The translations under genes and the position numbers were made by a program. The notes beneath the pieces were generated by a model that was not told the origin of the DNA, made no database searches, and worked only from the letters and a program-made list of their open reading frames with translations. A DNA stretch of 64,000 nucleotides. It comes from Anabaena sphaerica FACHB-251 (GTDB taxonomy: Bacteria > Cyanobacteriota > Cyanobacteriia > Cyanobacteriales > Nostocaceae). This document shows positions 40,461-49,163 of this stretch, piece by piece; positions within the stretch are counted from its first letter, which is position 1; every line of letters begins with the position of its first letter. The stretch covers positions 24,542 to 88,541 of the forward strand of contig NZ_JACJQU010000006.1 in the NCBI RefSeq assembly GCF_014696825.1, given 5' to 3'.

Positions 40461-40634
40461 GAAGGAGCAATAATATTATTTTAACAGCCGGAAAATGTTT
40501 ATTTTCTACAATGTTTGCTGCAATCATTGTTTTGAGTAAACAGTTTTTTTATTAGGGTAAATCTAGGGTATTTATATTATTAAAAATCAAGGACGCATTT
40601 GCCAATTTTATATAAATAATTGGATTGAGGCAGA

Positions 40635-41990
40635 ATGCAAGCAGTAGAAAATCAAGAAAATCATCTGACGGCAAAATTAGCAACAGAATTAAAGGCAATT
40701 AATGGTAGACTAAGAGCCGCTAGGGTGAGTGTTTCTGTCAGAAAATCTGGTAATTCATTACAGTTGAGAAGTACCCTTCCTATTAAACCAGGTGATATTG
40801 ATAAAAACGGTATAGGCACAAAGCAATATGATATTTCTTTGGGGATACCATTCAGTTTTGATGGTTTAAATACTGCGGAAGAGGAAGCTAATGAGTTAGG
40901 AAAATTGATTGCTAGGAAACAATTTGTATGGAATGATAAATATTTAGGCAAAACAAGATTTAAAGCCAAATTTATAACAATTGGAGAGTTGATTTCTGAG
41001 TTTGAGCAAAACTATTTCCAAACTAGAAAACGCACGCTCAAAAGTAACAATACTTTTAATAGTTATTTCTATATTGCTAAAACACATTTGCCAAAGGATA
41101 AGTTAGCGATAGATGCTAATTTTATTGATGCTGTGAAATCTTGCCCTTCATCGGATAGTGTGAAAAATGAATTAATTAAGGTGATTAGGGTTTTGTGTAA
41201 ATGTTCTGGTTTAGAGGTTCCAGAATTGAGTAATTTAAAAATTAAAGCTATTTCTCAACGTAAACGTGATATACCCACTGATGCAGAAATAGAACAAGAA
41301 TATCTGAAGTTTGAAAATTATGCTATTAATCGTTCTAGTAAGTTGATAACTAGGGAAGATAGAAATAATTGGAAATTGTGGAGATGGATTTATGGAATGT
41401 TAGCGACTTATGGATTAAGACCAATTGAAATTTTTGTTAATCCTGATTTAAATTGGTGGTTATCTTCAGAAAATGTGATGAATACATGGCGTGTTAATGA
41501 AGAATGTAAAACGGGAGCAAGGGAAGCTTTACCATTATATCCGCGTTGGGTAGAAACTTTTAATTTAAAAACAGATACAGAAGCAATTAATTTATTAAAA
41601 GCGAAAATTAAAAATAAAGTTACGAGTAGAGAAATAAACTCTGCGCGACATGGTACAGATAGATGGTTTAGATTTGTGGGTGTGAATTTTCAACCTTATG
41701 ATTTACGTCACGCTTGGGCAATTAGAGCGCATTTAATGGGTATTCCCATTAAAGCTGCTGCTGATAATTTGGGTCATTCTGTGAATATGCACACTTCGAT
41801 TTATCAAAAGTGGTTTAGTTTGGAAAATCGTAAGGTTGCGATTGAGGAAGCGATTAAGAAAAAATCGAAGTCGGAAGATTTACAGGATATGGTGATTAGA
41901 TTGGAACAGGAAAATGAGAAGTTGAAAATTGAGAATGAGAGATTGAGGTTAGAAATGGGAAATCAAAGTTTAATGAGAGTGATTAATTAA
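40635..41990 (+). CDS. XisA/XisC-family site-specific tyrosine recombinase (candidate nifH-element excisase)
   Basis: 451 aa, clear paralogue of the 23943..25244 protein, including C-terminal RHAWAIRAHLMGIPIKAAADNLGHSV...YQKWFSL and coiled-coil tail. Confidence 0.8.
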   Translation: MQAVENQENHLTAKLATELKAINGRLRAARVSVSVRKSGNSLQLRSTLPIKPGDIDKNGIGTKQYDISLGIPFSFDGLNTAEEEANELGKLIARKQFVWNDKYLGKTRFKAKFITIGELISEFEQNYFQTRKRTLKSNNTFNSYFYIAKTHLPKDKLAIDANFIDAVKSCPSSDSVKNELIKVIRVLCKCSGLEVPELSNLKIKAISQRKRDIPTDAEIEQEYLKFENYAINRSSKLITREDRNNWKLWRWIYGMLATYGLRPIEIFVNPDLNWWLSSENVMNTWRVNEECKTGAREALPLYPRWVETFNLKTDTEAINLLKAKIKNKVTSREINSARHGTDRWFRFVGVNFQPYDLRHAWAIRAHLMGIPIKAAADNLGHSVNMHTSIYQKWFSLENRKVAIEEAIKKKSKSEDLQDMVIRLEQENEKLKIENERLRLEMGNQSLMRVIN

Positions 41991-42050
41991 ATAATACGTA
42001 ATCGCTTACGAAGAGAGATTTCAGCCCCAAAAACGGGGCGATGCTGTAAG

Positions 42051-48300: not shown

Positions 48301-48422
48301 AACTTTTGAAAAGCAGCTTTTACCGCAGTTTCATGAACCACACCCAATTTTTTAAAATTTTCTAACTCTTCGTAATATTGCTTAATAGGTTTGTGGGTTG
48401 GTTTGAGATTAAGACTAGACAT
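45312..48422 (-). CDS. Type IIG/IIL restriction-modification fusion enzyme (MmeI-like: N-terminal PD-ExK-like nuclease region plus N6-adenine MTase)
   Basis: 1036 aa; N-terminal D...EAK region (RVDGALVDDFNLPRAYWEAKDSKDNL); MTase motif I LDPFVGTGNF and motif IV GNPPYN; long C-terminal TRD. Confidence 0.65.
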   Translation of the reverse strand: MSSLNLKPTHKPIKQYYEELENFKKLGVVHETAVKAAFQKLLESCCQQFKWTLVQEYAIKRPKKQPLRVDGALVDDFNLPRAYWEAKDSKDNLKKEVQKKLAVDYPKDNIIFQQPERAILYQDGKLVMDEDITNPQNLVDVVRQFFEYRPPAIEQWEKASNEFGFRVKENATALLELIREQSKKNKKFIDAFAEFLQLCRQSINPNLSEAAVEEMLIQHLLTERIFRSVFNNPDFAQRNIIAVEIEKVINALTSKSFSRSHFLSSLDRFYGAIEETAATIDNFSQKQDFLNKIYERFFQGFSVKVADTHGIVYTPQPIVNFMVKSVEDILQREFGKSLVDKGVHILDPFVGTGNFIIRIMREIAEIQKSALPYKYEHELHCNEVMLLPYYIASMNIEHEYFEQAGEYKSFEGICLVDTFDLAEAKQLSLALFSTENTKRVERQKQSPIFVIIGNPPYNAYQSEDINNRNRKYLVMDKRVSETYSKDSKATNKNALSDPYVKAIRWASDRLKNDGVVAFVTNSSFLDKLAFDGMRKHLQNDFDNIYIFNLQGDIRKDSMRDGIPLGEQHTVFGLAAMVGVSITFLVRKTGSTEHKIFYHEVDFRATRKEKFEIIEKLKTVVSTEWKELQPDNKNNWLTDDLKDEYQDFTPLGTKEAKATDGIAAYAIFKLYSGGVKTSRDAWAYNFNADELAKNMQKTIDFYNDHIFRWKNRKDREISINNFVNLDDHQISWSDGLRTYVKRETCIAFEERYLRHSLYRPFTNTFLYFDRHLNERRYQFPSISPTSQIEEENCFICVTGLGAQQSFATLFSNKIPDLNFLGIGTVPQWFSFYTYHEDGTNRQENITDWVLKQYQNHYQDETITKWDIFYYIYAVLHHPHYRERYAANLKRELPRIPFAPEFHPFATAGKRLAEIHVNYEKQPEYRLKHLENKDLPIDWRVEKMRLSKDKTQIKYNDFLTLTGIPPEVFAYRLGNRSALDWIIDQYQVTTDKRSGITNDPNRLDDEEYIVRLIKQVITVSLETVEIVNNLPDLGLVKD

Positions 48423-48725
48423 ATAATTAAAAGTGACGTAATAATATTAGCATATTATACAGAATAATTTTGATATTATTACTTGGGTCGCGAAAGTATA
48501 AAAACTTAATATTTTCTCTCTGCGCCTCTGCGTCTCTGCGTGAGGTAACACATTTATCAAAAATCATGTATCCCCCTTGACACAAGGTAAAAAATAGGGT
48601 AAAAAAACCATAAACCCTGAACAAAAACCCCATTTACCCAAAAATTCCCAGGGCAAAAATAGGGAACAAAAAAAACAAAATCCTCAACCAATTGCATCAA
48701 CAAAAACCCTAAATAATCCCCCTTA

Positions 48726-49163
48726 ACCTTCACGGATAGGCATAGCAAAACCACCACATACAACGTCACCTAATACGTCGTAAGATACGAAATCTAAGTC
48801 TTGGTAAGCACCGTTTTCTTCCAAGAAGTTAATAGCGGTGATAATACCACGACCTGCACAACCTACACCGGGTTCTGGACCACCAGATTCAACGCACTTA
48901 ACACCACGGAAACCGGTCAACATTACTTCGTGGAGTTCCAAATCTTCAACAGCACCTCTTTCAGCAGCCAAGTGAAGAACGGTTGTTTGAGCCTTAGAGT
49001 GAAGCATCAAACGGGTAGAGTCAGCTTTAGGGTCGCAACCTACGATCATGATGCGTTGACCCATTTCAGCCATAGCTGCGAGGGTGTTTTGAGAGGTGGT
49101 AGATTTACCGATACCGCCCTTGCCGTAGAAAGCTATCTGTCTAATATTTGCGTCAGTAGTCAT
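48726..49163 (-). CDS. nifH: nifH 5' segment (nitrogenase Fe protein, first 146 codons, ...[14 protein letters not shown])
   Basis: [52 protein letters not shown]... canonical NifH P-loop; frame hits TAA immediately after REG at the element border. Confidence 0.9.

Follow-up and report, generated by a model that had tools for sequence, protein, structure and literature searches.

We analysed a 64,000-nucleotide stretch of contig NZ_JACJQU010000006.1 from Anabaena sphaerica FACHB-251, a heterocyst-forming cyanobacterium (this whole stretch is called the window below), in which the nifH gene of the nif1 cluster is interrupted by a putative excision element. The nif1 genes lie on the minus strand of the window in the order nifB, fdxN, nifS, nifU, nifH, nifD, nifK, nifE and nifN. 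The 5' part of nifH (48726..49163, minus strand) comprises codons 1 to 146, with ...FAMPIREG as its last residues, and its open reading frame (ORF) is closed by a TAA at 48723-48725, in the DNA of the element. The nifH frame picks up again at 40459 and reaches its stop at 39998, so that the 3' part (39998..40459, minus strand) comprises codons 144 to 296 and the stop codon, the first three of these codons being located inside a direct repeat.

This 10-bp repeat, CCGTGAAGGT, is present at the nifH-5' junction (attL core, 48726..48735, minus strand) and at the nifH-3' junction (attR core, 40451..40460, minus strand). It occurs only twice in the window, in the same orientation and at both nifH break points, when 0.08 copies are expected by chance and none of 100 shuffles reached two copies. 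The 8-mer CCGTGAAG was likewise found nowhere in the window but at the two nifH junctions. The repeat begins at nucleotide 429 of nifH (49163-48735+1), and the element, counting one repeat copy, spans 40461..48735 (minus strand), that is 8,275 bp, with a GC content of 36.0% compared to 38.0% for the window. In-silico deletion of these 8,275 bp, with one repeat copy kept, gave a NifH of 296 amino acids (aa) (146 + 150 codons) that matched NifH chains of the PDB with an E-value of 2.7e-143 and aligned across the junction without a gap. An earlier reading, made from the letters alone and called here the sequence-only reading, had placed a split after ...FAMPIREG and a 10-bp direct repeat at the break points, and both were confirmed by these ORF ends, the gapless rejoined protein and the two exact repeat copies. 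Nothing else resembling nifH was detected when the window was searched by tblastn, so no second intact nifH is present within these 64 kb. Since the gene is split after codon 146, no Fe protein can come from the interrupted copy.

The recombinase and the proposed excision

A XisG-type (XisA-family) tyrosine recombinase of 451 aa is encoded at 40635..41990 on the plus strand. Its ORF starts 175 nt inside the nifD-proximal border of the element and reads inward, opposite to nifH. Comparison with XisA, the recombinase of the nifD element also present in the window, showed 48% identity over the whole length (E 4e-145), and each of the two genes reads inward inside its own element, which agrees with the earlier proposal of a recombinase paralogous to xisA and with the same layout. 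The catalytic residues R262, K292, Y355-x-x-R358, H381 and Y390 are invariant in an alignment of 40 XisG- and XisA-type proteins. Box II aligns to that of the archaeal XerA (4A8E), a tyrosine replacing the usual first histidine; this R-Y-R-Y peculiarity of XisA, XisC and XisG was described in PMC3610870.

The AlphaFold2 model of the recombinase (mean predicted local distance difference test score, pLDDT, of 81.8) comprises an N-terminal helix, a three-stranded sheet followed by a helix (residues 33-93), a helical core-binding domain, a catalytic domain and, at the C terminus, a long helix, and its best Foldseek matches were XerA, Tn1549 Int, lambda Int and Cre (prob 1.00). In database searches, the recombinase falls in a tight clade at 78-92% identity, followed by a gap down to about 50% (XisA proper), and its 100% match is annotated as "integrase" of Anabaena sphaerica. 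The ratio of nonsynonymous to synonymous substitution rates (dN/dS) of the recombinase gene was 0.10-0.14, the values with five close orthologues being 0.10-0.13. The recombinase gene is thus intact and under purifying selection, and its product retains the full catalytic set.

These results make it very probable that the element belongs to the nifH1 interruption-element family (XisG) and that its own recombinase excises it in heterocysts, restoring nifH. In vegetative cells, nifH would be interrupted after codon 146 and the Fe protein would not be made from that copy. During heterocyst differentiation, the XisA-family tyrosine recombinase encoded by the element would recombine the two CCGTGAAGGT cores, which would release a circle of 8,275 bp, leave one core copy behind and restore the 296-aa nifH within the nifB-fdxN-nifS-nifU-nifH-nifD-nifK cluster. 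The neighbouring nifD element, of 14.8 kb, would be removed in parallel by its own XisA. We infer excision in A. sphaerica heterocysts by analogy with orthologous elements with the CCGTGAAG core, and the heterocyst excision proposed in the sequence-only reading finds its support there. The A. cylindrica nifH1 element (5,736 bp, flanked by CCGTGAAG) was gone from 100% of heterocyst genomes and excised in 3-12% of those of vegetative filaments, as measured by sequencing, PCR and qPCR in a 2019 preprint (10.1101/629832). The nifH rearrangement of Nodularia spumigena AV1 was shown experimentally by Vintila et al. 2011, to the extent that this work is cited in PMC3610870.

Several features of the window recombinase and its surroundings weigh against such an excision. 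The Pfam Phage_integrase model (PF00589) scored 22.4 on the protein, under the gathering cut-off of 27.1. Most orthologues are annotated with 475 aa from an in-frame ATG located 24 codons upstream (MDRTQEAFADFHQTAITDGGYLGR-MQAVEN...), and the window (40560..40634) has lost this upstream ATG through an insertion of 7 bp, a deletion of 14 bp and substitutions creating stop codons; to judge from the letters, the promoter-proximal region of the recombinase gene is altered in the window copy. Only the 451-aa form, starting at the internal ATG, is therefore possible, and the destruction of this region accounts for an ATG located 175 nt from the border instead of the published distance of about 109 nt. 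No canonical NtcA site (GTAN8TAC) was found upstream of the recombinase gene in 40461-40634.

NtcA control of the recombinase gene, examined as a candidate, received no support: nine GTAN8TAC sites were found in the window compared to 10.6 expected, and none lies near 40461-40634. A sigma-70 scan of positions 40400-40700 gave a single promoter-like site, which lies on the wrong strand and does not exceed what shuffled sequences give, and no terminator-like site was found in a scan of the same interval.

The loss of the upstream start raises the alternative of a locked relic, in which a poorly expressed recombinase, having lost its upstream start and part of its leader, never restores the split nifH1 and a nifH2 located elsewhere supplies the Fe protein. 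The disruption of the ATG and of the 24-codon extension found in most orthologues is consistent with such a relic, as is the presence of second nifH copies (nifH2) in related species (PMC3610870). However, the proteins encoded by the two nifH halves are 96-100% identical to their orthologues, with a dN/dS of 0-0.09 for both halves; the recombinase is full length with all of its catalytic residues and a dN/dS of about 0.1; the two cores agree at all 10 nt, and conservation extends to the arms. Furthermore, 451-aa forms of the recombinase are found in several other genomes, and the locus of Trichormus sp. NMC-1 (L005) independently lacks the same ATG, so that the loss of the 24-codon extension is, by comparison of these sequences, probably tolerated in the window recombinase. 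We consider a locked element very unlikely, and keep a small probability for it mainly because the upstream recombinase start is lost.

Related loci and cargo of the nifH element

The comparative scan, based on one genome per species, found 35 further Nostocales loci (labelled L001-L035) with an orthologous recombinase of 79-94% identity. They belong to Anabaena, Dolichospermum, Trichormus, Cronbergia, Sphaerospermopsis, Cuspidothrix, Cylindrospermum, Nodularia, Umezakia, Anabaenopsis, Chrysosporum, Aphanizomenon, Richelia sinica and Nostoc. The recombinase is located about 180 nt from the 3' part of nifH, which starts at approximately codon 144, in all 34 loci that reach that side (34/34; L022 is cut off), while the 5' part ends at approximately codon 145 in every related locus extending far enough. 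The nifH element is thus widespread in Nostocaceae, at one invariant site.

The complete elements (n = 25, that of the window included) share the core CGTGAAG and are 2,495 to 8,660 bp long. Their exact repeats vary from 7 to 15 nt, the 10-nt version of the window being also found in L004, L018 and L034. One of these loci, L026, corresponds to contig KE384676 of D. circinale AWQC310F; the 7,754 bp recovered for its element equal the length given by Hilton et al. 2016 (PMC4874684), and its recombinase is 80% identical to that of the window. Because length, core and site agree with those of its relatives, the window element is an ordinary, rather large member of this group.

An assembly or sequencing artefact, such as a chimeric join, is extremely improbable as the origin of the split gene. 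Nothing was found in its favour. Among the independent assemblies open to checking, complete genomes included, the architecture is the same, with the same core at the same codon, and it was verified experimentally in two species, A. cylindrica (10.1101/629832) and, as cited in PMC3610870, N. spumigena.

Five loci (L008, L023, L026, L027 and L028) have a nifH 5' part that begins only at approximately codon 46-48. In L027, codons 1-52 of nifH sit about 1.75 kb further on, so that nifH is interrupted a second time. This additional break near codon 46-48 probably corresponds to the variant with a serine recombinase listed near nt 143-152 in the table of Hilton et al.

The largest cargo gene of the window element encodes a protein of 1036 aa (45312..48422, minus strand) that combines nuclease, methylase and target-recognition domain (TRD) in a single chain. 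Its best solved relative is DrdV (7LO5; Type IIL, MmeI class), matched over residues 13-1029 with an E-value of 4e-207. The motifs D70...E85-A-K87 of the nuclease, DPFVGTGNF at position 347 (S-adenosylmethionine motif I) and NPPY at position 454 are present, and the C-terminal TRD is Type_ISP_C. The predicted protein shares with DrdV and MmeI the order of nuclease, connector, methyltransferase (MTase) and TRD as well as the catalytic motifs, and it is, on this evidence, a predicted restriction-modification (RM) enzyme of Type IIL, DrdV/MmeI class. The features expected of this class, namely an N-terminal nuclease of the PD-ExK type, a gamma-class N6-adenine MTase with motif I and NPPY, a C-terminal TRD and no translocase ATPase, are all seen in the protein. 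The Pfam MTase model of MmeI gave only 20.9 bits on it, below the cut-off of 27; the sequence-only reading was therefore right to propose a fused RM enzyme, while "DrdV-like Type IIL" is a more accurate description than its "MmeI-like".

A second large gene (42051..43778, minus strand) encodes a polytopic membrane protein of 575 aa whose homologues are annotated as GT39-family or phospholipid-carrier-dependent glycosyltransferases. The protein itself gave no Pfam, NCBIfam or PDB sequence match, even at E-values up to 10. Its many homologues in Nostocales (67-90% identity) bear the label GT39-family in NCBI and UniRef, and PF02366 is carried by 5 of the 120 that were listed. A protein identical to it is attributed by its source to A. 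sphaerica (FACHB-251). The earlier designation of this gene as a GT39-like glycosyltransferase thus holds for the annotation of its homologues, a few of which carry PF02366, but not for any family match of its own.

The remaining cargo is a pair of small overlapping ORFs (44640..45105, minus strand), orf86 (44845..45105) and orf70 (44640..44852). The product of orf70 has a weak aspartyl-protease-like match with a DTGA motif and is apparently truncated. A 46-aa ORF located downstream of orf70 (44424..44564) may be its displaced C-terminal part, in which case orf70 is probably a pseudogene. Within the spacer that separates orf86 from the RM gene (45157..45298), a repeat of 54-55 nt is present in three tandem copies. 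A 68-aa ORF at 48427..48633, considered as a further cargo gene, was dismissed as probably not being a gene: it overlaps the distal arm, and its conservation is confined to roughly the first 30 codons, which coincide with conserved arm DNA.

Comparison with the related loci showed each of these modules again in further nifH elements: the membrane protein in L005, L033 and L034; the RM enzyme in L003, L014, L022 and L027, remnants of it being left in L024, L026 and L031; and the orf86/orf70 pair in L001, L002, L004, L020 and L023, with orf86 alone in L030. The smallest element, L031 (Anabaena sp. 4-3, 9817..12312), is 2,495 bp long and retains only the arms, the recombinase gene and a 70-codon RM remnant. 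The cargo is therefore dispensable for persistence of the element, this 2.5-kb member defines the minimal nifH-element unit, and its remnant suggests that the RM gene is an old, decaying cargo. The genes of the membrane protein and of the RM enzyme, with dN/dS values of 0.15 and 0.26 respectively, are both maintained. We infer that the cargo (RM enzyme, glycosyltransferase-like protein and small ORFs) is accessory and interchangeable.

Such a mosaic of cargo swapped among members, together with the 2.5-kb minimal member, a GC content below that of the surroundings and the low-level excision seen in vegetative-cell DNA of A. cylindrica (10.1101/629832), would also fit a chiefly selfish element, phage-like or similar to an integrative and conjugative element, that still moves horizontally and targets a conserved sequence of nifH, with excision not restricted to development and the RM enzyme serving as an addiction module by which vegetative cells retain it. 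However, no phage structural, replication or conjugation genes were found in the nifH element, and all related loci open to checking have it at the same site and in the same orientation. The marked difference between heterocysts and vegetative filaments of A. cylindrica also argues against unrestricted excision (10.1101/629832). We therefore regard a chiefly selfish element as very unlikely, although its mobility would complement developmental excision more than exclude it. Developmental excision by the XisG-type recombinase is preferred over all three alternatives because of the strong purifying selection on the nifH halves and the recombinase gene, the identical cores, and the same architecture in those independent assemblies that were open to checking.

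The nifD element and the conserved arms of both elements

The nifD gene of the window is likewise interrupted. Its ORF stops after ...HSWDYS(EPSNVG), the 5' part being located at 38470..39852, and joining at TACTCCG gives a NifD of 500 aa; GGATTACTCCG is the form of the core at the nifD 5' junction. The nifD element (23665..38496; 14,832 bp) has its TACTCCG cores at 38490-38496 and 23658-23664. Its xisA gene (23943..25244) encodes a short form of 433 aa, and its cargo includes an AAA_21 ATPase, a DUF5615 protein, a Band_7 protein, a HEPN-like protein and a cyclophilin. Two of these, the Band 7 protein and the ATPase, belong to gene groups common to nifD elements in Hilton et al. 2016 (PMC4874684). 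In loci L010 and L013, the recombinase is located beside a split nifH, yet nifD is uninterrupted across the TACTCCG site. The nifH and nifD elements are thus inherited independently.

Two neighbouring tRNA genes are located in the nifD element (30646..30800, plus strand), a tRNA-Lys(CTT) and a tRNA typed as Asn, whose anticodon, ATT, is unusual. This pair would leave the heterocyst chromosome upon excision. An Rfam scan of the whole window gave these two tRNAs of the nifD element as its only matches, and nothing in the nifH element. The nifD element also contains a gene of the ADP-ribosylglycohydrolase family (36850..37632, plus strand; Pfam E 1e-38), about 850 bp from the nifD junction. This family takes in DraG, the reactivator of ADP-ribosylated NifH. 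Away from the nif genes, a 612-aa ORF (11412..13250, plus strand) showed similarity to DNA methyltransferases/DUF1156 proteins described as "anti-phage-associated" (NCBIfam E 1e-12 to 8e-16), and the next ORF, of 326 aa, is without a family match.

Both arms of the nifH element are conserved across species. The recombinase-proximal arm (40461..40634, minus strand) is conserved over the whole 174 nt from the core to the recombinase gene, and the distal arm, at the nifH-5' end (48490..48725, minus strand), over about 230 nt. The recombinase-proximal arm contains a TACCCTA doublet (40553-40559 and 40564-40570) at offsets -110 and -99 in nifH sense. In the distal arm, CCCTA is found at +64 and +129/130, often at +140 too, with an inverted TAGGG at +17; the distal CCCTA pair of the window belongs to an internal repeat of 30 nt (48585-48614 and 48650-48679). 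These offsets are kept in nearly all of the 25 complete elements, at a density 13.6 times that of the element interiors. TACCCTA is not significantly enriched across the window, with eight copies found compared to 5.8 expected, and the case for the CCCTA/TACCCTA motif is its positional conservation across the 25 elements, not its counts in the window.

A different word is found at fixed offsets in the paralogous nifD elements. All three window copies of TTAGACTA are located in the arms of the nifD element, as a doublet beside xisA (23758/23769) and a single copy at 38256 (38256-38263), and many related loci have TAGACTA in the distal nifD arm, at +74 and/or +228. According to Voss et al. 2013 (PMC3610870), a core of 8 bp occurs 111 times in a genome, and the choice of two copies was left open. 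The arm motifs may help the recombinase choose the two cores. They are candidate arm-type sites for the N-terminal domain of XisG, an assignment that we make tentatively and with some doubt; bound arm-type sites would explain how two cores are chosen among the 111 genome copies. If this is true, the enzymes of the XisA family would be heterobivalent recombinases like lambda Int with reprogrammable arm specificity. The fixed positions of the conserved arm motifs, and the change of word between the nifH elements and the paralogous nifD elements, provide a testable hypothesis for target choice in the XisA family, and this set of short motifs in both arms is possibly the sole new detail of the present analysis.

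Comparison with known interruption elements

The window element is a nifH 428/429 interruption element of the XisG type, which is already known, and it is new only as a further member. The novelty attributed to it in the sequence-only reading was overstated, the insertion variant having been catalogued in 2016 (PMC4874684) and the recombinase named XisG in 2013 (PMC3610870). No concept is altered by this element; one more species, A. sphaerica, and 35 related genomes are added to a known class of developmentally excised elements.

Hilton et al. 2016 (PMC4874684, Table B) listed the nifH 428/429 variant in seven genomes. Its direct repeat is (T)CCGTGAAG, its tyrosine recombinase lies in the opposite direction at about 108 bp from the end of the element, and its lengths are 5.2-9.0 kb. 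The hosts include Anabaena circinalis (Dolichospermum circinale) AWQC310F, A. cylindrica PCC 7122, Anabaena sp. 90, Anabaena sp. PCC 7108, Nodularia spumigena CCY9414 and Nostoc sp. PCC 7524. The Nodularia recombinase named XisG by Voss et al. 2013 (PMC3610870) is 48% identical to XisA, and its element has an 8-bp repeat and a putative DNA methylase as cargo.

The XisG-type nifH1 elements of Nodularia and of the Hilton variant share with that of the window the insertion at nt 429 of nifH (codon 143-146) and the core CCGTGAAG. The layout is also the same in the catalogued nifH 428/429 elements, with a tyrosine recombinase at the nifH-3' end in the opposite orientation. The size of the window element falls within the published range, and a cargo gene of the DNA methylase type is also reported for the Nodularia element. 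The window element differs from the catalogued members by its host, A. sphaerica FACHB-251 being new to the list, and by an exact repeat of 10 nt instead of 8. Unlike theirs, its recombinase is without the 24-codon N-terminal extension, the ATG being 175 nt instead of about 109 nt from the border. It also unites three cargo modules that are found separately in other nifH elements.

The nifH elements with a serine recombinase (nifH 143-152, 405-409 and 781 of Hilton et al.; XisF-like) are likewise nifH interruptions that are removed in heterocysts. However, their recombinase belongs to another superfamily, their insertion points are different and their size, which can reach about 190 kb, is usually much greater. 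No interruption of this type was found in the nifH of the window.

The nifD element and its XisA, known from Anabaena sp. PCC 7120 and also present in the window, resemble the nifH element in that a structural gene of nitrogenase is interrupted by developmentally excised DNA. The two recombinases are paralogous, with the 48% identity given above and a common change of histidine to tyrosine in the active site, and in both elements the recombinase gene is located at the 3'-proximal end and reads inward. Both elements also have short direct-repeat cores in conserved coding sequence and arm motifs at fixed offsets. The nifD element differs from the nifH element in its target gene, its core (TACTCCG / GGATTACTCCG), its arm motif (TAGACTA instead of CCCTA) and its cargo.

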